A stretch of DNA of 34,962 nucleotides from Bdellovibrionales bacterium (GTDB lineage: Bacteria; Patescibacteriota; Patescibacteriia; UBA9570; XYC2-FULL-38-9): NCBI GenBank assembly GCA_044233365.1, contig JBIIKE010000002.1, positions 1 to 34,962 on the forward strand, given 5' to 3'. Of the stretch, positions 2,151 through 32,480 are shown one piece after another. How positions within the stretch are numbered: the first letter of the stretch is position 1; each line of letters opens with the position of its first letter. The notes under the pieces are model-generated. The model did not search any database and was not told where the DNA came from. It was given only the letters and a program-made list of their open reading frames with translations. The translations under genes were made by a program, and so were the position numbers.

Positions 2151-3551
2151 ATGACAAAAAATATTTTAGATAGCGCACAAAAAATCTATTGTATCGGCAT
2201 CGGTGGCATTGGCGTATCAGCGCTTGCGCAATTGTTGCAGGCAGATGGCAAGCAAGTCAGCGGTGAGGATTTGACGGCGAGTAGTGTCACTGAGATGTTG
2301 CAAACAAAGGGGATTGCGGTTGCAATTGATTCGCGGGGTGAGGCTTTGGAATCCGCTGATTGCATTGTCTATAGTAGCGCTGTTCCAGAAAATCATCCGG
2401 CGCGGTCGATTGCTCGTGAAAAAGGAATTCTTGAGCTGCAATATTTTGATGCGTTAGGGCAGTACATGCAGCAATTTGAAACTGCGATTGCGGTCAGCGG
2501 AACACATGGAAAAACCACAACCACGGCGCTGATTGCGAATCTGCTTGTCGATGCTGGTTTTGATCCAACCGCAGTTGTGGGAAGTATCGTCAAAGAATTT
2601 GGTGACACCAATGCGCGCGCGGGTGGAGCAGACAAAAAATATATTGTTGTCGAAGCCTGCGAACATGAAGCGCACATGCTGAAACTGCACCCGACAATGA
2701 TCGTCGTGACAAACATCGAGGCCGACCATTTGGATTACTATCGTGACCTTCAGCACATCACCGACACCTTTCAAGAATTTGTGAATCAGTTGCAGTCGCG
2801 GCCAGCGCAGGCGGTGGAACCGACTCTTATTGTGAATGCTGACGACCCGCGCGCCAAAGACTTAGAATTCGAAGGCAAGCGTATCTCTTTCGGAATTGAA
2901 GCAGTCGCAGATCTTCAGGCACTGAATATTGGTGTTGAAGCGGGTAGACAGTTTTTTACTGTGCATAATCATGACTATCTCCTGCATATTCCGGGCCAGT
3001 TTAATATTAATAATAGCCTCGCTGCAATTGCAGTAGGTAGGCAGCTTGGGATTTCTGAGGCGACAATTGCGGCGTCGCTCAAAAAATTTCATGGCACCTG
3101 GCGTCGCTTTCAAAAACTCGGTGAATTTCAGGGCGCGACTGTGATTTCAGATTACGCGCATCATCCAACTGCTGTTCGTGCAACAATTCGTGCAGCCAAA
3201 GAATTTTTTCCAAAGCGACGGATTGTTGCCGTCTTTCAACCACATCAACGTGCGCGCACCAAAGAGCTATTCAGCGATTTTTTAAATGCCTTTGTTGAAG
3301 CGGGCGTTGTGATTGTCCAAGAAATTTATGATGTGGCTGGTCGGGAAGAATCTGAATATGCGAATGTATCTTCGCAGCACATTGTTGATGCGCTCAAAGA
3401 TATTGAGGGACAAGTTGCGGTGTTCACGCTGACCGCTGCTAAAACCCGCATGACGCTCGAAGAAATTGTTCAAGATGGCGACGTCGTGTTGGTGATGGGC
3501 GCTGGTGATATTTATCGGCTTGCCGAAGAGCTTGCTCAGAAAGAGTCTTGA
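2151..3551 (+). CDS. murC: UDP-N-acetylmuramate--L-alanine ligase MurC
   Basis: It has the Rossmann-like IYCIGIGGIGVSALAQLL segment, the Mur ligase P-loop GTHGKTTTT and DYAHHP near the C-domain. I prefer ATG 2151 (4 nt after the murG stop) over the TTG at 2133 used by the track. Confidence 0.9.
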   Translation: MTKNILDSAQKIYCIGIGGIGVSALAQLLQADGKQVSGEDLTASSVTEMLQTKGIAVAIDSRGEALESADCIVYSSAVPENHPARSIAREKGILELQYFDALGQYMQQFETAIAVSGTHGKTTTTALIANLLVDAGFDPTAVVGSIVKEFGDTNARAGGADKKYIVVEACEHEAHMLKLHPTMIVVTNIEADHLDYYRDLQHITDTFQEFVNQLQSRPAQAVEPTLIVNADDPRAKDLEFEGKRISFGIEAVADLQALNIGVEAGRQFFTVHNHDYLLHIPGQFNINNSLAAIAVGRQLGISEATIAASLKKFHGTWRRFQKLGEFQGATVISDYAHHPTAVRATIRAAKEFFPKRRIVAVFQPHQRARTKELFSDFLNAFVEAGVVIVQEIYDVAGREESEYANVSSQHIVDALKDIEGQVAVFTLTAAKTRMTLEEIVQDGDVVLVMGAGDIYRLAEELAQKES

Positions 3552-3582
3552 TGTTAGAGTGTTCGCTTCAATAATAATTGTT

Positions 3583-4464
3583 ATGAATATCCCAAATTTG
3601 CAAGAAAACGTTCCGCTCGCACCATACACCACCTTTAAAATCGGTGGCCCAGCAAAATATTTTATTGTTGCAAAAACTTCTGATGAAATGGTGCAGGCAG
3701 TGAAAGAAGCGACAACTGCAAATATTCAGTGGATTGTGCTGGGCGGCGGATCTGACGTGTTAGTGTCTGACAAGGGATTTGATGGTCTCGTTATTAAATC
3801 TGAATTGCGTGAGGTTGTGATGAATGAAGAAACCGCCGAAGTGAGGGTCGGCAGTGGCGTTTTGCTTTCTGCCTTGATTCCTAAAACCATGAATGCAGGA
3901 TTCGCGGGATTGGAGTATGCGATTGGTGTGCCAGCGACAGTCGGTGGTGCGGTCTGGGCAAATCTTGGTGCGCGTGGGTCTGATATTGCGCAGTGGCTGA
4001 CAAATGTGACAGTGCTCACTCCAGAGGGTGAGAAAAAAAATCTGACCAACGAAGATTGTGCATTTGCCTATCGCGATTCAATTTTCAAACACGAAAAATT
4101 TATTATTGTCGACGCGACGTTCCAATTAACAAAAACTGACAAAAAAGTCACGTTCGCAAAAATGAAAGAACTGGCAGATCTGCGCAAAGACACGCAAGAC
4201 GTTGGGGCAAAATGTGTTGGTTGTGTGTTTCAAAACCCGACTGATCAAACAACTGAAGCAGCAGCAAAACTGATTGACGATCTTGGGCTGAAAGGCAAGC
4301 AAATCGGTGGCGCCAAGGTTTCAGACATTCACGCAAATTTTATTATCAACACCGGCGACGCGACTGCCGATGATGTTGTGCAATTGATTTCATATATCAA
4401 ACAACAGGTCCGTGATAAAAATGGTATTCAACTCCATGAGGAAATTGAGTATATTGGGTTTTAA
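3583..4464 (+). CDS. murB: UDP-N-acetylenolpyruvoylglucosamine reductase MurB
   Basis: It has the N-terminal LAPYTTFKIGGPAKYF FAD-binding signature, GGGSDVLV, and the C-terminal GGAKVSDIHANFIIN motif. ATG 3583 is chosen because the track start at 3505 overlaps murC and adds non-homologous residues. Confidence 0.9.
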   Translation: MNIPNLQENVPLAPYTTFKIGGPAKYFIVAKTSDEMVQAVKEATTANIQWIVLGGGSDVLVSDKGFDGLVIKSELREVVMNEETAEVRVGSGVLLSALIPKTMNAGFAGLEYAIGVPATVGGAVWANLGARGSDIAQWLTNVTVLTPEGEKKNLTNEDCAFAYRDSIFKHEKFIIVDATFQLTKTDKKVTFAKMKELADLRKDTQDVGAKCVGCVFQNPTDQTTEAAAKLIDDLGLKGKQIGGAKVSDIHANFIINTGDATADDVVQLISYIKQQVRDKNGIQLHEEIEYIGF

Positions 4465-4504
4465 AATTCCACTTCTTCTGCGTACCAACCACAGCGGTTG
4501 ATAT

Positions 4505-4558
4505 CCAAAAGAGGGGGGTTGGGACGGTGAACTCGCGAATGTGCAAGCCTACCGCCCC
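4505..4558 (-). terminator. Candidate intrinsic terminator of the minus-strand small ORF
   Basis: On the minus strand, GGGGCGGT (4558..4551) pairs with ACCGTCCC (4528..4521), including one G-U pair. An inner hairpin CTTGC-ACATTC-GCGAG sits inside that stem. The structure is followed by AACCCCCCTCTTTTGG and begins 6 nt after the TGA stop. The T-run is short. Confidence 0.3.
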
Positions 4559-4564
4559 GGATGA

Positions 4565-4792
4565 TCACGCGGCGACGGCCTCGGGGGCCATTCTGCCGAC
4601 GACCTCAACCATCGGGTTGTCGTGACAGAACGAGGCCCTGATCAAGGGCTCGAACTGCTTGTGAGAACCGTCTGGTTGACGGATAACTCGCAGTGCCGTC
4701 ATCTGGAGATCAACACAGGTCCAAAGGCAGCCGTCATTGGCCCCCTGAACCTGAAATACCTCGCCTGCCGTTATGAAGCCAAAACGCTTCAT
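4565..4792 (-). CDS. Hypothetical 75-aa protein encoded in a GC-rich island (no family recognised)
   Basis: GGAGGA precedes the ATG (GGAGGATCCATG). By hand count 52 of 75 codons end in G/C, unlike the A/T-ending preference of neighbouring genes. The amino-acid composition is protein-like. A host-type promoter lies upstream and a stem-loop lies downstream. Confidence 0.45.
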   Translation of the reverse strand: MKRFGFITAGEVFQVQGANDGCLWTCVDLQMTALRVIRQPDGSHKQFEPLIRASFCHDNPMVEVVGRMAPEAVAA

Positions 4793-4843
4793 GGATCCTC
4801 CAATCGAAAATCGGACAGCATGATTGCCGCCGAAAGTGGCGAC

Positions 4844-4872
4844 TTTTTACCATAAAAAAGCGGTTTTGTCAA
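4844..4872 (-). promoter_or_regulatory. Candidate sigma70-type promoter with extended -10 driving the small minus-strand ORF
   Basis: The minus strand reads TTGACA-aaaccgcttttttaTGg-TAAAAA with a 17-nt spacer. The same architecture (TTGACAAA..ATGGTAAAAA) recurs at 28971-28999. Confidence 0.4.
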
Positions 4873-4894
4873 ACACAGCGCGTTGCGGTATACT
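4866..4894 (+). promoter_or_regulatory. Candidate sigma70 promoter of hpf
   Basis: TTGTCA (4866-4871), a 17-nt spacer, then TATACT (4889-4894), about 34 nt upstream of the hpf ATG. Confidence 0.55.
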
Positions 4895-4927
4895 GAACAC
4901 ATCCTCTAACAAATACACATAAATGAT

Positions 4928-5287
4928 ATGAACATCACAGCAAAGAATTTTGAACCGACAGACGCGATCAAACAATACATCGAAAAAAAATTCACCACCG
5001 CGCTTGAAGATCTGAATGGTGATGCGACGCATATCGATATTGAAGTCGACCGCCAAACGAAACACCAAAAAGGTGACGTCTTTCATGTGCGCGGTCATGT
5101 CCAAGTGACGCACGGTGATCTCTATGCCGAAGAAACGCAGGCTGATCTCTACGCCGCGATTGATATTTGCTGCGATGAATTACAACGACAAGTGCGAGAT
5201 CGTAAAGGCAAGCGTCAAGCTAAAGAGCGCAAAGGTCGTAAAACTCGCCGCGCGCTTAAATCATTTTTTGGTTTTGGAAAAGATTAA
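4928..5287 (+). CDS. hpf: Ribosome hibernation promoting factor / RaiA (sigma-54 modulation protein family), short form
   Basis: MNITAKNFEPTDAIKQYIEKKF and LYAAIDICCDELQRQVRDRKGK are typical of the HPF/YfiA fold. It is 119 aa with a basic tail and sits in the classical position upstream of secA. Confidence 0.85.
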   Translation: MNITAKNFEPTDAIKQYIEKKFTTALEDLNGDATHIDIEVDRQTKHQKGDVFHVRGHVQVTHGDLYAEETQADLYAAIDICCDELQRQVRDRKGKRQAKERKGRKTRRALKSFFGFGKD

Positions 5288-5297
5288 TTTTGTGAAC

Positions 5298-6341
5298 ATG
5301 AAAGAGGAGTGTCAATTAACCGCTGACGATTGCAATCGAATCAAAGTTGAATTGATGTCGGCGCTGTCAGGCCTTTTTGTCTATGCTGATACCGTGTCAC
5401 TGACCGCGGCCAACCAACTCTTGCGCACAAACGTTGATCCAAAGATCTACAACACTGTCGCGCGCCTTAATCGTTATATTGATAAAAATCCAAAACGGAT
5501 TCGTTTGCTCGCCGAAAAATTGGGCTATAGCGATTGGTTTTCTGAAGAAGCGCAATCAATTGTCGCGCCGGTTATCGACATCTATCAACATAGTTCGCAC
5601 TACAATTTTGATACTGCTGATATTACTCGACATGATCTCGCGCAGTGTTATCTTGAGCTTCTGTCCATTGCCGCGCTCTATGATGATCAACTCCTTAAAG
5701 ATTTTGCTACTGCGGTTTTTTCAATCCTGACACACGAATATATTCATTCCAACACGCAAGCCTTTCATCATCATCTCGGCGCGGAACAGCGCACGATACA
5801 ACAATTACAAGAAGCTGTGCATCGTTTAGCGCGGCATGATGCTCGGTTACAGTATTCGCCACACATTCGAGGACATGAGCATGACGACATTATTGAACCA
5901 ATTCATGCGCACATTCACCATAATAATGCACTCGCAGCATTGCGTATCCCACTCGCCATCACGCTGCACGACGCACTGATAGATTCCTATTCCATCGCGT
6001 ATGGCGATCCGCAGTTCGTGCAACGTCACACGATTCATGATCGCGTGCATTTGCCACTTGAGCAAATACGCGGTACTGGTCTGGCTATGCACGTCCTTTT
6101 TGACCCCGAAACCAGCAGCGACCCTCTGCAATTTTTTCTCAACACTGACCTCCTCGACGCAATTCGCGACAATGGCTCAGCTGTCGGCGCGGTGATTGGA
6201 GTGCATGGTGACATTCAACTCCATCCAGAATACCTGAATGAACGTCACCACGAGCAGCCCATTGCACGCGTGCGTGTCAACCATGCTATTTTAGAGATTC
6301 AAAAACTACATCCTGACAGTGAGTTGACGCTTTTCGTCTGA
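5298..6341 (+). CDS. Hypothetical His-rich protein with an HEXXH motif (possible zinc metallohydrolase)
   Basis: This is a long uninterrupted ORF. I prefer ATG 5298 (10 nt after the hpf stop) over the track start at 5115, which overlaps hpf out of frame. It contains ILTHEYIHS (HEXXH) and many His clusters (FHHHLG, HEHDDIIEPIHAHIHHNN). I recognise no family. Confidence 0.7.
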   Translation: MKEECQLTADDCNRIKVELMSALSGLFVYADTVSLTAANQLLRTNVDPKIYNTVARLNRYIDKNPKRIRLLAEKLGYSDWFSEEAQSIVAPVIDIYQHSSHYNFDTADITRHDLAQCYLELLSIAALYDDQLLKDFATAVFSILTHEYIHSNTQAFHHHLGAEQRTIQQLQEAVHRLARHDARLQYSPHIRGHEHDDIIEPIHAHIHHNNALAALRIPLAITLHDALIDSYSIAYGDPQFVQRHTIHDRVHLPLEQIRGTGLAMHVLFDPETSSDPLQFFLNTDLLDAIRDNGSAVGAVIGVHGDIQLHPEYLNERHHEQPIARVRVNHAILEIQKLHPDSELTLFV

Positions 6342-9172: not shown

Positions 9173-10114
9173 TTACGCGAGAAAAATTCGTTGAGTCGTT
9201 ATTTTTATAAACCCGTCTTTTTCGAGTGCAGTGATCACAGTTTTTAGCCAGGGAAGGCGAGTCGAATCAAAATCCGGTTGAATGGCTTTTCCAATTTGAT
9301 TGAGCGTTGCGCCATTTGGTGTTGTGTGGAGAAATTTCAATATTTTGCCACGCCAAATGCGACGCGGCTGTCCAAAATACTGCTTCTCTTTGACGACGGT
9401 TTTATATTTCAACAATTCTTTCGGCGCAGTTTGAATCTCTGGAAATGATGTGCAGATCTTTTGCATTGGGCAGCTGTCACATTTTGGTTGACTGGCAGTG
9501 CACACCAGCGCACCAAACTCCATAATCGCCTGATTAAAAATCCAGATCCGATCTTTGCGCGGCAACAATGCTGTCATTAAATCCCAAAATTCTTTTTGGG
9601 TTGTTTCAGGCAATTCACGAAACCCTAAAAAAATCCGACCAATGACGCGCTCAACATTTGTATCGACCAGTGGCGTCTTCAGCTCAAAGGCAAAACTTGC
9701 AATCGCGCCAGCAGTGTATGGCCCGATTCCTGGAAGTTTCTGCAGACCTTCAATTGTTTGGGGAAATTTGCCGCCCAACTCATGTGTCACCACCTGACAC
9801 GCTTTTTGTAGATACAGTGCGCGGCGGTTATATCCAAGTCCTTGCCACAGCGCAACCACATCGGCTTGTTTTGCTGTCGCCAAATCAGCAGCTGTCGGAA
9901 ACCGTTTCAAAAATGCATGATATTTTGGAATGACTCGATCCACTTGCGTTTGCTGCAGCATCATTTCTGAAACGAGAATTGCGTACGGATCACGCGTTTG
10001 TCGCCACGGCAAATCTCGTGAGGCTTGCTTGAACCAGCTGATCAGTTGTTTTTGAAAAAATTGACGATCTCTGGAAGAGGGTGACTTCATAAGGATTGAG
10101 AATAGTGCTATCAT
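9173..10114 (-). CDS. mutY: MutY-family A/G-specific adenine DNA glycosylase with an atypical C-terminal domain
   Basis: It has LPWRQTRDPYAILVSEMMLQQTQV, the HhH-GPD segment LPGIGPYTAGAI, the catalytic VDTNVERV, and a 4Fe-4S loop C-x6-C-x2-C-x5-C (CTASQPKCDSCPMQKIC). The start could instead be the second ATG at 10090. Confidence 0.85.
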   Translation of the reverse strand: MIALFSILMKSPSSRDRQFFQKQLISWFKQASRDLPWRQTRDPYAILVSEMMLQQTQVDRVIPKYHAFLKRFPTAADLATAKQADVVALWQGLGYNRRALYLQKACQVVTHELGGKFPQTIEGLQKLPGIGPYTAGAIASFAFELKTPLVDTNVERVIGRIFLGFRELPETTQKEFWDLMTALLPRKDRIWIFNQAIMEFGALVCTASQPKCDSCPMQKICTSFPEIQTAPKELLKYKTVVKEKQYFGQPRRIWRGKILKFLHTTPNGATLNQIGKAIQPDFDSTRLPWLKTVITALEKDGFIKITTQRIFLA

Positions 10115-17913: not shown

Positions 17914-19608
17914 ATGAATGAGATTTTTTTTAATGTCAGCATCATGTTGATTGCCGGCACAATCGCCGCAACAATTGCCAAGGCCCTGAAGCAGCCAATG
18001 ATTCCAGCGTATATTTTATCGGGTGTTATTATTGGCCCGCCCGTGCTCGGCTTGTTTCATAATGACGAGATGCTTCATACACTCTCAACATTTGGTATCG
18101 CATTTCTGCTGTTCTTAGTTGGCATTGAGCTTGATTTACGCGTTTTTCGGAAAGTTGGTAAAGTTGCAGTGATTGTGTGCTTGATTCAAATGACTGCCGC
18201 AGTCGGGATTGGGTATGTGTTTATTCGTTTCTTGGATTTTGATGTAGTCACATCATTGTTTATTGCTCTGGCACTTGCATTTAGTAGTACTATTCTGGGA
18301 GTGAAAATGATGGCAGAGCGGAAAGAGTTGGATACGTTGTATGGGCAACTTGTGATCGGTATCTTGTTAACACAAGATATTCTTGCGATGCTGACACTGA
18401 TTTTTATTCCATTGTTATTAGCAGGGAACCTTCAGGGCAGCGATGCTTTTGGTGCAGTTGCAGCAATTATCGGTAAAGCAATTGCGTTAACAGTTTTTGC
18501 AGTCGCGGTCTCACAGTTTATTTTACGATACCTTTTCCGATTTTTTGCGCATACATCAGAATTATTATTTCTCGGTTCAATTTGCTGGTGTTTGTTTGTT
18601 AGCATGCTGTCAATTCTCCTTGGATTTTCAGTGGAGGTTGGTGCGCTCATTGCAGGTGTGAGCTTGTCCTTTATTCCATACAGCATTGAGATCGGGAATC
18701 GCATTAGCTCATTGAGAGATTTTTTCTTACCATTATTTTTTGCAACTCTTGGTGGACAACTGCTCTTTGATTCATTCGTAGAATATATTATCCCAACCAT
18801 TGTGATGGTGTTGATTGTATTATTTGTTACACCAATTGTTGTTACATGTACATGGTTGATTTTTGGGTATCGTACGCGCACTAGTTTCATGGCTGGTATG
18901 GCGCTGGGTCAAATTAGTGAATTTTCTTTTGTCTTAATGGCTGTTGGTTTTACGAATGGAGCAATTTCACGTGATGTCATTGCGTTGATTGCATTAGTTG
19001 GTCTGATTAGTATGACAGTCTCTACGTATATGATGGAATATTCAGACACGCTCTATACAAAATTTCGTCCGTTGCTGAAAAAATTTGAACGCAAAAAATA
19101 TGCGAATAGTTTAGAAAATATTAGTCAAGAAATGAAAAACCATGTTGTCATTTTTGGATTTCATACCATGGGACAACGGATCGCGCGATTGATCACAGAT
19201 GTCAATGATCAGTCATTGTTAATTATCGATCACAATCCTGATGTTATTCGAGCATTGACCAGTACGTCATATAATTATTTATATGGCACCATGAGTGATC
19301 ATGAATTATTACAGCATGCACATCTTTCTGAGGCTGATTCTATTATTTCAACTGTTCCAGATCGTCGCTCAAATTTAGCATTACTGAATTACGTCCACGA
19401 TAATAAAATTAAAGCGACTGTTATTGTTACTGCGTTTCATGTCAATGAAGCGCTTGAATATTATGAGCTTGGTGCACATTTTGTGATTTATCCAACTTTA
19501 ATTGCAGTTGATGCAGTTGCTGATGTTTTGCAAAATCGTCATCATGCGCAACGGAAAACGCACATTAAAGAACTGCGGAATATTTTAAAAGAATCTCACG
19601 CTCTATGA
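17914..19608 (+). CDS. Kef-type (CPA2) monovalent cation:proton antiporter with C-terminal RCK/TrkA-N domain
   Basis: It has about 12 TM helices of a Na+/H+ exchanger-like core, then VVIFGFHTMGQRIARLI, a Rossmann-like RCK N-lobe. Confidence 0.85.
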   Translation: MNEIFFNVSIMLIAGTIAATIAKALKQPMIPAYILSGVIIGPPVLGLFHNDEMLHTLSTFGIAFLLFLVGIELDLRVFRKVGKVAVIVCLIQMTAAVGIGYVFIRFLDFDVVTSLFIALALAFSSTILGVKMMAERKELDTLYGQLVIGILLTQDILAMLTLIFIPLLLAGNLQGSDAFGAVAAIIGKAIALTVFAVAVSQFILRYLFRFFAHTSELLFLGSICWCLFVSMLSILLGFSVEVGALIAGVSLSFIPYSIEIGNRISSLRDFFLPLFFATLGGQLLFDSFVEYIIPTIVMVLIVLFVTPIVVTCTWLIFGYRTRTSFMAGMALGQISEFSFVLMAVGFTNGAISRDVIALIALVGLISMTVSTYMMEYSDTLYTKFRPLLKKFERKKYANSLENISQEMKNHVVIFGFHTMGQRIARLITDVNDQSLLIIDHNPDVIRALTSTSYNYLYGTMSDHELLQHAHLSEADSIISTVPDRRSNLALLNYVHDNKIKATVIVTAFHVNEALEYYELGAHFVIYPTLIAVDAVADVLQNRHHAQRKTHIKELRNILKESHAL

Positions 19609-20366
19609 GGTCTATCCTCCTCCTTTTGGGATTTTTTGCTGGCGTCGCTGTTCCAGCTGGATTGTTTTTGTATCACTTTGTTCCCAGCTCAATGAACAAT
19701 GAGCAGGTTCAGTGGTTAATTGGTGGTTTGGTCATCGTTCCTGTGCTGGTGGCATTTATTGGTGGTGTGGCATTGTTTTTTCAAACACAAACCTATCACT
19801 ATATACCGTTGCCTGGAGAAGATGATGAGAGAGACGATGAAGAGAATATGCACCTTCCTTCTTCAACAAAACAATCAGTTGTGCGGGAGCATTCACCACT
19901 TGAGTCATTTATCCGCGCGCGAGTTTTGGCTGTGTGTGAAGACGTCGAGGCCGCAGTTATTCATCAACCGTTGATTTATCAAACGACTGTGTATACGCAA
20001 TTTTCCGCCTATTTGCAACAGCAACAAGAATTTTTGCGGGCGGGATGGACAATGCAATTCGGCTTACGTATTACCGAACCGCATCAATTACGGTTGGTGT
20101 ATGAATTTTCTGATGATGAATTTTTAGCCGAGTGTGAAGGTATATTTGATTGCGTTGCGTCATATGGCGCAGTTCAACATTCCGTGCCACTGACAACTGA
20201 AGAAATGGGTCAGGCAGCAGTTGAACCGCATTTGGCACCGCCACTGATCGGGATGCCTGGCGTGATGCGTTTGCGATTGAAGCGCTTTGAGGCTGGTGGG
20301 CCATGGCTGATTACAGGGCTCTATGATACTGTCCGCGGTTTACAGATGGGCGAACCCGTTGTATAG
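19605..20366 (+). CDS. Hypothetical membrane protein (two N-terminal TM helices, acidic linker, soluble C-domain)
   Basis: An ATGA overlap with the antiporter stop suggests translational coupling. I recognise no motifs. Confidence 0.6.
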   Translation: MRSILLLLGFFAGVAVPAGLFLYHFVPSSMNNEQVQWLIGGLVIVPVLVAFIGGVALFFQTQTYHYIPLPGEDDERDDEENMHLPSSTKQSVVREHSPLESFIRARVLAVCEDVEAAVIHQPLIYQTTVYTQFSAYLQQQQEFLRAGWTMQFGLRITEPHQLRLVYEFSDDEFLAECEGIFDCVASYGAVQHSVPLTTEEMGQAAVEPHLAPPLIGMPGVMRLRLKRFEAGGPWLITGLYDTVRGLQMGEPVV

Positions 20367-29576: not shown

Positions 29577-32480
29577 ATGGCTGAAAATCCTAAAGGCACT
29601 ACTACTATTGGAGTAGAAAAACCTGAAGCTGATGTTGTGGTGGAAACCACGCTTGATAACGCGAGAACAACAACCTTTGATTCACCAAAAACAGCGGCGG
29701 AGCACTGTGGTTTGATTTTAGGTGACATTAAATCTGTTGGTGAACGTGCACGCGCGGCAATGAATACTGGGTATGCTGAAGCACAGGCTCAAAAAATTGA
29801 TTTGGCTGTCTATACAACTAAAATGCAGCGGATTTACGACGAAGCAAAGAATAATATTGATGCCATTATTGCACAATTAGCAGCCATTCAAGGTGCTATT
29901 ACCAGTCCAGAAAATACTTTGCCAGATAGTGACAAGGCGTCGATTGTACGGGTTATTGAGCGGGGCGTTGAGCAAGCTCGTCGGTCCAAAGCAGAGATTG
30001 TTGATCAGTTAGAACAACAACGAGTTCGTCGTCCATTGGCAGAAGAGGTTTTACATAATTTAGATCAAGCGCGTGAAGCGTATGGCATTGCGGCAGCTGC
30101 AGGAACGTTAGATGTTGGTGAAACAAATCCTCGAGACATAGCGCAGTCAGCACAATTTGCGACTCGCTCAGTTCGAGAAAATACGCGTCCTGTACCACTT
30201 GCTGAAGGTATTGATAATCGAGCTGTTCAATATGAAGACGCAGAATTACGCGCTCGTGCGTTAGGATTAACACAATTATTAGATGAGCGTTTGGCGAAAG
30301 TTGATGAAACCTTAGCAGCTCAGGCTGGAATGCACGGACTTGGTTTAGAAACCATGGCACAAATGCGCAAAGCGTATGCATCACTGGAGGCTTATAAATT
30401 GACTAGTAATGATTGGCGCGATCCAGCAAAATCTGGCCTCGCTGCTCGATTTTTAGGGAATGCGGATGGTCGTATGGCTGTGAAAGTTTTACTTGCTGCA
30501 GGCTCATTTGCAGCGTTCGCTTCTGGCTTTGCAGCACTTGGAACCGGAATCGCCTTGACTCGTACAGTTGCCGGTGGTGTGATGGGCTATTTTGCTGGTG
30601 AAAAAGTTGGTCGCGCTCGTGCAGAAAAACAAGCGATTGCAGCTGGTAGCGCAGAGGTTCGTGTGCCGGACAAGCTTGATTCAAAATCCGTGAGTGATGA
30701 TCAGTTAATGGATTTGATTGCTCGTATGGAATACAAAGCGTTGATTGCTGGTAAATCACTCACTCAAGCGAACGATGCTGATCCAACAGCGATGACTGTT
30801 GATCCAGACTATAAACGGTTAATTGAAGAATTGCAGAAACGGTCAGTAATGGATAAAGAAGGCGCTCGATCTTATTCAACGTCATTAGAAACAAAATTAC
30901 GTCAAGCCGATGCTCGGTTGCGTGAATTATTAAAAGATCGTGAGGCAGTCGAACGAGCCGCTTTAATTGGTGGCGTTGTTGGTGGTTCAATAGCCGCATT
31001 TTTGCCATCTGTATTGCGCGGTGGTTATGAAGGCCTGATGGATGCTATGGGATATGATGGATACAGTATGTTACATGGAGCTGCTGCGCCAATTATTGGT
31101 AATGCAAATGCGGAATATATTTCAGGAACCGGCGCGTATTCTCCAGACGCTTTGGCGGCTGCTGCTGCAGCAAACGCACCAACTCCAAGTGTGGCTCCAG
31201 CTTCTGTTCTGTCAGGGCCACCGCCTGCTCCAGTATATGCGAATACGATGGGACAAGGCTCAATGCCAAATCCTAGTCCCGGTTGGAGAAATCCTCTCAT
31301 AGCAGGAAATAGTCCTGAATTAAACACGGACGTCACCGCCCAAGCTGTTGTTGCCGCAGAAGTTCCAACGCCAGATGCTGGGTCATTTGTTCCAGATAAA
31401 ACAGAATTCGCGCAGTATATTGTTGGCAAAGGTGAAGGCGTTTCTTGGCCACTCAAAGCTCAGTTGATTGAACACGCTGATAAATATGGTTGGGATGGAA
31501 CTGGTGATAAAACAAAGTGGGCAACCAAAAAAATGTTTGAGTTGATGAAGAGTGAAGAATTTACCATTGATGGAAAATCAATGGCAATTTATAACGCTGA
31601 CATTGATAAGCAGTTATGGGTTGATGAGCCAGATCGTTACTCTTTTATTTTGAAATATGATGGCAAGGGTGGATATTCAATGGATGTCTATGATATGAAA
31701 GCGCCAGGTGGCCCAGCGCTACTCAGTGGAAATTACGATCAGGCATTATCTGAACACACTATTTCTGAGCCGCAAGGTGCAGGTGGAGGTTCTGCTGCAC
31801 AGGGCGCAGGACAGGGTCGTCCAGGTCAGTATGCTCCTGGTACACCAACTGCTCCAGAACCAGCGCCTATTGCTCCAGAACCAGGTGCTACTATTGATGA
31901 AAATGGCAAGGTTGTTTCTGGGCCAGGCAAATCAGCTGATTTAGCGCCAAACGCAAATAATAAAGTGCAATGGTATGACCAAGCTGGCTTTAAATCCGAA
32001 GGAAAATATAAAGATGCTATTTTTGGACAAATTTATGGAAAAGCTGGTGTTGCTGAAACTTGGAGCTTTGGTGCGAGTGATCCATCATCAGATATTTCAC
32101 AGAATCTAGTTGTGAATAATACACTACCACTTGATAAAGCTGGTTCCACAGGATTGAAATTTTCAGACAACTTTACATCTATCAAAGATTTCACTGGTTC
32201 AGTGCCAACTGCGACAAAAGAAGCGTTGTTTAATGATAGCCACCCACCATTCACTGGTAAATTTGGGAAACTCGCTGATGAATATGCGCAGTTACGCCAA
32301 GCCCAACATGTCTTAGACCATTCCACCTCATTAAATACAGCGGTGATTAGTCCGAGTGAAATTGCGGCAATGAAAAAAGCGATTGCTCGAGAATTAGCAG
32401 AACGTGTTCGAAAATTATTGGAATTTGAAGGTGCGTTAAATGAAGACATTCGACCAGCTCGAGTCTTTGGTAAAAATTAG
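29577..32480 (+). CDS. Large hypothetical membrane protein (967 aa) with Ala/Pro/Gly-rich linkers
   Basis: This is an uninterrupted 2.9-kb ORF. It has a helical N-terminal region of about 300 aa, a TM hairpin (VKVLLAAGSFAAFASGFAALGTGIALTRTVAGGVMGYFAG) and a third TM (ALIGGVVGGSIAAFLPSVL). Low-complexity linkers (AAAAAANAPTPSVAPASVLSGPPPAP; GAGGGSAAQGAGQGRPGQYAPGTPTAPEPAPIAPEPGA) separate two globular C-terminal regions. Confidence 0.8.
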   Translation: MAENPKGTTTIGVEKPEADVVVETTLDNARTTTFDSPKTAAEHCGLILGDIKSVGERARAAMNTGYAEAQAQKIDLAVYTTKMQRIYDEAKNNIDAIIAQLAAIQGAITSPENTLPDSDKASIVRVIERGVEQARRSKAEIVDQLEQQRVRRPLAEEVLHNLDQAREAYGIAAAAGTLDVGETNPRDIAQSAQFATRSVRENTRPVPLAEGIDNRAVQYEDAELRARALGLTQLLDERLAKVDETLAAQAGMHGLGLETMAQMRKAYASLEAYKLTSNDWRDPAKSGLAARFLGNADGRMAVKVLLAAGSFAAFASGFAALGTGIALTRTVAGGVMGYFAGEKVGRARAEKQAIAAGSAEVRVPDKLDSKSVSDDQLMDLIARMEYKALIAGKSLTQANDADPTAMTVDPDYKRLIEELQKRSVMDKEGARSYSTSLETKLRQADARLRELLKDREAVERAALIGGVVGGSIAAFLPSVLRGGYEGLMDAMGYDGYSMLHGAAAPIIGNANAEYISGTGAYSPDALAAAAAANAPTPSVAPASVLSGPPPAPVYANTMGQGSMPNPSPGWRNPLIAGNSPELNTDVTAQAVVAAEVPTPDAGSFVPDKTEFAQYIVGKGEGVSWPLKAQLIEHADKYGWDGTGDKTKWATKKMFELMKSEEFTIDGKSMAIYNADIDKQLWVDEPDRYSFILKYDGKGGYSMDVYDMKAPGGPALLSGNYDQALSEHTISEPQGAGGGSAAQGAGQGRPGQYAPGTPTAPEPAPIAPEPGATIDENGKVVSGPGKSADLAPNANNKVQWYDQAGFKSEGKYKDAIFGQIYGKAGVAETWSFGASDPSSDISQNLVVNNTLPLDKAGSTGLKFSDNFTSIKDFTGSVPTATKEALFNDSHPPFTGKFGKLADEYAQLRQAQHVLDHSTSLNTAVISPSEIAAMKKAIARELAERVRKLLEFEGALNEDIRPARVFGKN

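Follow-up and report, generated by a model that had tools for sequence, protein, structure and literature searches.

A probable horizontally acquired mini-gene in the variable murB-hpf spacer of Kerfeldbacteria

The window analyzed here is the whole contig JBIIKE010000002.1 (34,962 bp, 44 % G+C), which carries, between murB and the gene for a ribosome hibernation factor (hpf), a GC-rich island with an open reading frame (ORF) of 75 codons on the minus strand. The segment 4466-4813 is probably a small horizontally acquired accessory gene, located in a murB-hpf spacer that is normally short in Candidatus Kerfeldbacteria and whose content turns over between strains and species. The spacer contains an insertion with foreign composition and signals, its alleles are replaced between relatives, and its minus-strand architecture recurs in three lineages. 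The initial annotation of this DNA had described a foreign-looking island with a reverse-strand mini-gene. It was largely right, and the same architecture is repeated in the GC-rich islands of two relatives, L001 and L122.

An insertion between murB and hpf

The closest named relatives of the MurB protein encoded by the window belong to Candidatus Kerfeldbacteria (Patescibacteria, Candidate Phyla Radiation (CPR)). The loci used for comparison (L001-L008 and L120-L125) are the contigs encoding the closest MurB proteins, and the percentages given with them are MurB identities to the window. Scans of a genome-contig collection for MurB relatives and of a metagenome-contig collection for HPF relatives yielded none. 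The gene order murB, hpf, a gene for a protein of ~340 amino acids (aa) and secA, found in L003, L007, L008, L120 and L121-L125, is the normal one in Kerfeldbacteria. The island had been described as lying at a break in the dcw (division and cell wall) cluster, a description that was not upheld because this order is the normal synteny of the lineage. The distance between murB and hpf is 463 bp in the window versus 62 bp in L007 (73 %) and 47 bp in L120 (68 %). The window spacer therefore contains an insertion, and the comparison of murB-hpf loci in relatives that had been proposed for the island is answered in the affirmative, with L007 and L120 as outgroups.

The insert is sharply bounded. 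Blastn of positions 3400-5400 against L001 (96 %) gave 93.4 % identity up to the murB stop codon (4465) and 95.9 % identity from 4814 onwards, with no alignment in between; hence the variable segment is 4466-4813. The murB stop codon is the exact end of left-side homology with all relatives, as judged by blastn against L001-L006 and by the junction sequences. On the right, a 52-nt blastn alignment of 92 % identity covers 4814-4865, so that this stretch with the promoter-like site belongs to the flank conserved with L001. The island had been drawn as 4465-4865 by the initial annotation; its foreign composition stands, but its extent had to be reduced by the comparison with L001. The G+C counts given for it were reproduced exactly, with 174 of 300 nt at 4501-4800, 20 of 60 at 4381-4440 and 21 of 60 at 4921-4980. 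Indeed, the island is the G+C maximum of the contig: over segments of 300 nt it reaches 0.59 versus a mean of 0.44 (standard deviation 0.037), and no other segment exceeds 0.54.

The content of the spacer differs between close relatives. In L001 the spacer measures 953 bp and holds an AT-rich minus-strand ORF of 95 aa as well as a GC-rich segment (61 % GC). The 95-aa orphan (2249-2536, minus strand) lies between murB and the GC-rich cassette, has a host-like G+C content at the third codon position (GC3) of 0.29 and has no counterpart in the window. L002 (94 %) and L003/L004 (86 %) harbor, at the same site, an AT-rich minus-strand ORF of 211 aa that is unrelated to the window ORF (2837-3472 in L002, 4879-5514 in L003, 3479-4114 in L004) and whose stop codon overlaps that of murB. 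Both AT-rich cargo genes, of 95 and 211 aa, also lack a ribosome site as read from the sequence. The 211-aa protein gave no match in Pfam, PADLOC or PHROGs and no viral relative, and the L001 cargo gave nothing in Pfam, NCBIfam, PHROGs or PADLOC searches. No relationship was found among the different types of cargo protein (75/81, 95, 138 and 211 aa).

A third GC-rich island is found in L121-L125 (66 %). The spacer of these loci (3383-3991, 609 bp) has 59 % GC overall and locally up to 72 %, and this type of spacer, represented here by L122 (GCA_002790455.1, PFVE01000020.1), is 100 % identical in five assemblies (JGI, NCBI, ENA). It harbors a minus-strand ORF of 138 codons, started by GGAGG-N5-ATG, with a G+C content at the three codon positions of 0.65/0.56/0.78. 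The predicted protein has a C-terminal CxxC...CxxC motif, and a hairpin and a T-run follow the stop codon. No significant Pfam match was found for it, nor any match in phage records, plasmids or viral contigs. The annotations of the L121-L125 islands disagree, giving a protein of 138 aa, one of 150 aa, or no gene. Taken over these loci, the murB-hpf spacer is a hotspot of turnover between strains and species.

Two further loci depart from the common pattern. L008 (67 %) has a spacer of 186 bp (3886-4071), which is possibly the remnant of a deleted cassette; it contains a long-range inverted repeat, CCCCACACGCTG ... CAGCGTGTGGGG, with arms ~85 nt apart, and shares the 11-mer GGGGTGGGAGA with the L122 island. 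A G-rich box, GGGGTGGGAG, present in L122 and L008, was considered as a recombination site and rejected: with respect to the hairpins its position is not the same in the window and L001, and it was read as part of the GC-rich terminator stems. In L005 (74 %) hpf is missing, and murB is followed by 59 bp (4877-4935), the conserved protein of ~344 aa and secA.

The initial annotation had also raised an assembly chimera of Kerfeldbacteria DNA and a high-GC fragment as an alternative, for which the abrupt shift in composition is the sole evidence. Against this, a separate contig of 1712 bp (JGI sample 3300059473) carries a murB fragment, an identical 75-aa gene and an identical hpf in the same orientation. 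In L001, which comes from another assembly (GCA_964608475.1), a GC-rich ORF occupies the equivalent position, and the right junction sequence is shared with the window from 4814 onwards. Furthermore, an island of this kind is present in the more distant species of L121-L125, where five assemblies agree exactly on its sequence. With the arrangement repeated on a second contig and with islands at the same site in independent assemblies, a chimera is hardly credible. The JGI sample 3300059473 also holds a contig encoding an 81 %-identical MurB, and at least two related Kerfeldbacteria populations therefore co-occur in it.

The minus-strand reading frame and its signals

The ORF list places the 75-codon frame at 4565-4792 on the minus strand, TGA stop codon included, with its ATG at 4792. 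It encodes the peptide quoted in the initial annotation, predicted to be a soluble protein of 8.3 kDa with an isoelectric point (pI) of 6.0; its translation is predicted from features of the sequence. The G+C content at the three codon positions is 0.62/0.43/0.68. Since GC3 of 19 host genes is only 0.28-0.48, the reported preference of the ORF for codons ending in G or C was borne out. The Shine-Dalgarno sequence GGAGGA was found where it had been reported, at 4801-4796 on the minus strand, 3 nt before the ATG. Among 23 host genes in the window (with starts at, for example, 1103, 3583, 4928, 6362, 10145 and 29577), none has GGAGG within 25 nt upstream of the start codon and a single one has GAGG there, which makes the island ORF the sole GGAGG-led gene of the contig. 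The same lack of GGAGG was seen in the five host genes checked in L122.

The GC-rich segment of L001 contains a minus-strand ORF of 81 codons (2813-3058), starting from an ATG after GGGAGG, with a codon-position G+C content of 0.54/0.45/0.79. GC3 of the three GC-rich ORFs thus amounts to 0.68 (window), 0.79 (L001) and 0.78 (L122), and GGAGG precedes all three. The order GC3 > GC1 > GC2, seen in the minus frame of each of these ORFs, was counted as support for coding. The GC-rich ORFs differ from host genes in three independent ways, namely in base composition, in third-position bias and in having a strong Shine-Dalgarno sequence. These three differences are the signature to be expected of recent import from a donor with a higher G+C content that uses Shine-Dalgarno sequences. 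In dinucleotide shuffles of the window island, a minus-strand ORF preceded by GGAGG and reaching 75 codons or more was found in 0.8 % of cases. The hypothesis was taken from the window and then applied to the other two islands, where a GGAGG-led minus-strand ATG ORF at least as long as the observed one arose in 0.5 % (L001) and 0.07 % (L122) of shuffles.

The plus strand offers an alternative frame of 77 aa with a GTG start codon (4622-4855). According to this explanation the real gene would lie on the plus strand, or the island would be a 3' extension of the murB transcript. The 77-aa ORF does exist, a plus-strand terminator lies downstream of the island, and in L001 the gene caller also picked a plus-strand ORF, of 83 aa (2789-3040). 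The latter has a codon-position G+C content of 0.83/0.48/0.57, a pattern typical of an antisense shadow. It shows no similarity to the plus-strand ORF of the window, neither of the two is preceded by a ribosome site, and neither matches Pfam, NCBIfam, PHROGs or PADLOC. A plus-strand gene or murB extension is therefore considered very improbable. The 81-aa ORF of L001 was missed by the gene caller, and this allele is consequently absent from protein databases.

The promoter-like sequence TTGACA-N17-TAAAAA had been reported at 4872-4844 on the minus strand, and it is present there. It is preceded by TGG (extended -10), ends 51 nt upstream of the ATG and is identical in L001; it fails the stricter rule of the promoter scan. 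All three GC-rich islands have a sequence of the form TTGAC[AC]-N17-TAAAA[AC] whose end lies 44-51 nt upstream of the ATG; between it and the ribosome site there is a short hairpin. L122 has an independent TTGACC-N17-TAAAAC at the same distance from its ATG. This element does not coincide with a plus-strand terminator and for that reason lends some independent support to the promoter proposed for the window. The mini-gene site stands back to back with the promoter-like sequence of hpf found in the promoter scan, TTGTCA-N17-TATACT (4866-4894, plus strand), and overlaps it. The heptamer TTGTCAA (4866-4872) can be read as a -35 element on both strands: hpf would use TTGTCA (4866-4871), and the mini-gene would use TTGACA of the minus strand. 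Although all the listed elements are present, the island is not fully the self-contained expression unit that it had been called, because its promoter lies in the conserved flank (4814-4865).

Read on the minus strand, this 4814-4865 segment would be a 5' leader with a hairpin at 4842-4825. Read on the plus strand, the same hairpin with TTTTT (4824-4850) resembles the terminator of the murB operon in the terminator scan. The scan showed no plus-strand terminator between the murB stop codon and 4824-4850, so that any transcript running on from the cell-wall operon would be antisense to the mini-gene over its full length.

At the other end, a GC-rich hairpin at 4521-4558, a putative intrinsic terminator of the minus strand, directly follows the ORF stop codon and is convergent with murB (-26.9 kcal/mol, z -4.4). 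Folding confirmed this interrupted GC hairpin (4558-4521) and the following CCCCCCUCUUUU on the minus strand, both of which the initial annotation had pointed out. Analogous hairpins follow the ORFs of L001 (folded) and L122 (read from the sequence). On the minus strand the 12-mer CCCCCUCUUUUG comes after the GC hairpin and ends both the window and the L001 cassette, and it is absent elsewhere in the window and from the other loci. Its complement, CAAAAGAGGGGG, is located at 4506-4517 and is unique in the window, its only other occurrence being at the equivalent place in L001. Beyond this tract, ~45 nt are ~68 % alignable between the window and L001; this AT-richer left tail of the insert (4466-4505) corresponds to the sequence just left of the GC-rich cassette of L001. 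As a lead to relatives the CCCCCUCUUUUG motif was rejected, since the genome-contig scan gave 84 chance-level matches in unrelated genomes, none encoding a relative.

From these elements a course of expression can be proposed. Transcription of the mini-gene would start from TTGACA-N17-TAAAAA and run on the minus strand, divergently from hpf, giving a short mRNA leader with a 5' hairpin. Translation from GGAGGA-N3-ATG would yield the 75-residue soluble protein, probably rich in beta-structure, and transcription would stop at the terminal hairpin and CCCCCCUCUUUU, facing murB. Antisense read-through from the cell-wall operon could dampen the mini-gene by transcriptional interference.

In AT-rich genomes, intergenic segments with a high G+C content are frequently structured RNAs. 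The initial annotation had named a structured non-coding RNA as an alternative, in which case the ORF would be incidental. The 401-nt island indeed folds better than its shuffles (z -6.2 for the minus and -3.1 for the plus strand), and the ORF body alone gave z values of -3.4 and -3.95. The two terminal hairpins supply much of the full-length signal, and neither the ORF body of L001 (z -0.8) nor the island of L122 (z -1.7 and -1.2) has this excess folding. There was no Rfam match in the window at gathering score, nor in L001, L122 and L008 at E ≤ 1; a search of 4380-4960 against Rfam 15 at E ≤ 10 gave one chance match, ASpks, with 14 bits where 52 are needed. No tRNA or tmRNA was detected by ARAGORN. 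An RNA gene inherited together with flanks of 93-96 % identity should have stayed alignable, and the segment has not. An RNA would also leave the GC3 periodicity and the GGAGG-ATG arrangement unexplained. With no conserved excess structure and no Rfam match in any of these loci, a structured RNA ranks low and is regarded as quite improbable.

Divergence of the alleles and the orphan protein

The two minus-strand peptides of the window and L001 share 25 % identity, with M-[KR]-R-x-x-F ... G-E-x-F ... G-C, R-V-I and a C-terminal Ala-Ala in common. Their global alignment scores better than alignments of shuffled sequences (z 4.3, p ~0.0015). This divergence is far beyond that of the flanks. The synonymous and non-synonymous divergence (dS/dN) between the window and L001 is 0.30/0.023 for murB and 0.19/0.004 for hpf, and 1.37/0.87 for the small ORF, in which substitutions are saturated. 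Consequently, the cassette was not simply inherited with its flanks. Either the alleles would have been recombined in from a divergent pool, or each would have been acquired separately.

The peptide had been said to match no family, and the searches agree: protein, profile, PDB, phage and viral searches gave no relative beyond the weak similarity to L001. Neither the 75-aa ORF nor the plus-strand 77-aa ORF has a match in Pfam, NCBIfam, PHROGs or PADLOC. Tblastn against phages and plasmids and searches of viral contigs gave no match to the mini-gene protein, and a PDB sequence search was empty. Profile matches in the PDB were marginal, such as that to the C-terminal domain of lambda gpV (E 0.045), and were not accepted.

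The CxxxC motif and CH pair noted in the peptide are present, but they are not conserved in its sole homologue. Cys22 is the one residue shared with L001, which lacks C26, C56 and H57, and this makes a zinc site unlikely. The N-terminus of the window protein, KRFGFIT followed by VFQV, recalls the RNP1 (KGFGFI) and RNP2 (VFVHF) motifs of CspA-type cold-shock proteins. In contrast to these, it misses the first beta-strand of the domain, and the motif is not kept in the L001 allele. A cold-shock protein was rejected, as BLASTP gave no alignment, hhalign aligned 7 residues with a probability of 1 %, and there was no match to the Pfam cold-shock domain (PF00313). A scan of metagenome contigs with a degenerate form of the N-terminal motif returned 27 chance matches.

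Several results weigh against a functional, horizontally acquired gene. Among 5.8 billion clustered proteins, searched with the single sequence and with a two-sequence profile, only the 75-aa protein itself was found. An exhaustive phmmer search of 1.84 billion representatives gave the protein itself and two borderline matches judged to be spurious; these are short motifs repeated in large proteins, one read as discoidin/F5_F8-type-C-like and the other as large surface-type tandem repeats. No donor was identified in protein, phage, plasmid or viral searches, and genes for an integrase or transposase, or of phage type, are absent from the 35 kb. The 75- and 81-aa peptides are only weakly homologous, BLASTP giving E 0.004 for an alignment of 25 residues; their pairing is the best of 18 same-strand frame pairs, but the margin is only 37 versus 31. 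The single-sequence AlphaFold model is beta-rich but unreliable, with a predicted local distance difference test (pLDDT) score of 47. The length of the ORF proves nothing by itself, since an ATG ORF of 75 or more codons arises in 27 % of dinucleotide shuffles of the island. Both elements of the promoter-like site can also be explained otherwise, the -35 element as the complement of that of hpf and the -10 element as the complement of the T tract in the plus-strand terminator (4824-4850). The host barely uses Shine-Dalgarno sequences, and GGAGG may thus be a relic of the donor and not a working signal. Finally, the L122 island is left without a gene in the NCBI (PGAP) annotation of GCA_002790455.1.

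The last two points also favor the main rival, according to which the island is inert foreign-DNA debris from a high-GC donor that uses Shine-Dalgarno sequences, left for example after DNA uptake, and gene-like but unexpressed and unselected. The orphan protein fits this as well, ORFs of such length being common in GC-rich sequence. So do L008, which seems to keep only a remnant, and the site being empty in several lineages, its content therefore being dispensable. On the other side, each of three independent islands has retained an uninterrupted ATG ORF led by GGAGG. The strand is the same in each case, the promoter-like site is equally far away, and the stop codon is followed by a hairpin. 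The L122-type island is, moreover, identical in five assemblies that come from different samples. Nor would neutral decay as slow as in the flanks (dS 0.2-0.3) by itself erase the similarity between the window and L001 alleles and yet leave both ORFs open. Debris is unlikely on this balance, though it deserves to be taken seriously, and a small accessory gene is still the preferred reading.

Genomic context, known systems and biological meaning

The contig mostly carries housekeeping genes, nearly all of them on the plus strand. The gene murB (3583-4464, plus strand; Pfam MurB_C and FAD_binding_4) forms the left conserved flank of the island and is the last of the run ftsW-murG-murC-murB. The right conserved flank is hpf (4928-5287, plus strand; Pfam Ribosomal_S30AE), followed by a conserved protein without assigned family and secA. 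Further genes encode an ABC/MacB exporter, a PBP5-type carboxypeptidase, glycosidases, ProS-type and MetG tRNA synthetases, TatD, RmuC and a UvrD-like helicase. The island ORF had been counted as one of only two minus-strand genes; this is correct, and the other real one encodes endonuclease III (9173-10114). A conserved protein of ~340-350 aa without Pfam domain is encoded between hpf and secA in every Kerfeldbacteria locus examined. Its longest ORF in the window is 5115-6341 (plus strand); because this overlaps hpf, its start is probably over-extended and the real start probably lies near 5290. Two large orphans of host composition without Pfam match (E ≤ 1e-5) are also encoded on the plus strand, one of 967 aa (29577-32480, GC3 0.28) and one of 253 aa (19605-20366).

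Of the known systems, a genomic islet of minimal size, acquired horizontally at an insertion hotspot, fits the island best. Both horizontal transfer and genomic islands have been documented in Patescibacteria (PMC12455944). The window island shares with such islets a foreign G+C content, GC3 and translation signal, sharp conserved flanks, other cargo in close relatives, empty sites in outgroups, and an orphan as cargo. It differs in being very small, with a single gene in ~350 bp, and in the lack of an integrase, transposase, tRNA target, direct-repeat scar or phage gene in the 35 kb. A further difference is that GC-rich, GGAGG-led cargo recurs on the same strand down to 66 % MurB identity.

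Other kinds of mobile or variable element were considered as well. The locus resembles an integron cassette in its exchangeable small ORFs at one site, in a promoter located in the conserved platform and in the imperfect hairpin after the ORF, but there is a single cassette here and not an array. An integron cassette was rejected, since no IntI or other recombinase is encoded in the window and the attC core sites GTTRRRY/RYYYAAC are absent from the tail at 4466-4520 as read from the sequence. A miniature inverted-repeat transposable element (MITE), or any element with terminal inverted repeats and a target-site duplication, was rejected because the island ends are not inverted repeats and the sole flanking direct repeat found (at 4486 and 4870, 10 of 11 nt) is at chance level. 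The window contains no second copy of any part of the island, and no internal repeat was found. Neither a template repeat nor a reverse transcriptase is present in the window, and the target of a diversity-generating retroelement was rejected too.

The mini-gene also shows likeness to phage morons and anti-defence (Acr-like) genes, with its compact promoter, ribosome site, small acidic protein (pI 5.2-6.0) and terminator, and with its lack of homologues and its fast turnover between near-identical backgrounds. Unlike these, it is not located in a prophage, has no adjacent regulator gene and is known here from sequence alone; PHROGs, PADLOC, phage-record and viral-contig searches gave no match. 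Genes that are small, orphan, dispensable and hyper-divergent are typically conflict or interaction genes. A tentative guess, which we do not hold to be likely, is that the product is a dispensable protein of this kind, for example an immunity, anti-defence or phage-moron-like protein. The guess follows solely from the gene being small, orphan, strain-variable and extremely divergent between near-identical backgrounds.

A bolder and rather improbable explanation is that the murB-hpf spacer is a lineage-wide capture site that repeatedly takes up and retains complete expression cassettes from high-GC donors that use Shine-Dalgarno sequences, possibly the bacteria that carry these episymbionts, and that the small proteins so gained diversify far faster than the surrounding genome because they mediate symbiont-host or symbiont-phage interactions. 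In a variant of this explanation, high G+C content and GGAGG may be actively maintained in an AT-rich genome free of Shine-Dalgarno sequences. If true, such maintenance would imply a special mode of expression for GC-rich mini-genes.

As an orphan accessory gene in a variable hotspot, the preferred reading belongs to an already known kind and does not amount to a new type of system. Mildly unusual is that the same spacer holds GC-rich, Shine-Dalgarno-led orphans in distant Kerfeldbacteria whose own genes lack this signal. The GC-rich islands also pose an annotation problem, as gene callers pick different strands, or no gene, for them. CPR bacteria have tiny, streamlined genomes and depend on other cells, and the DNA that they keep beyond the core is informative for that reason. 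The locus illustrates, on a minimal scale and with clean boundaries, how genes are gained and replaced in such a streamlined genome: depending on strain and species, a single site after the cell-wall operon is empty or is occupied by an AT-rich orphan or by one of three GC-rich orphans with translation signals of foreign type. If expressed, these mini-genes would be candidates for strain-specific interaction or conflict functions, and they would provide a natural test of whether a host lacking Shine-Dalgarno sites can use a gene that is led by one.

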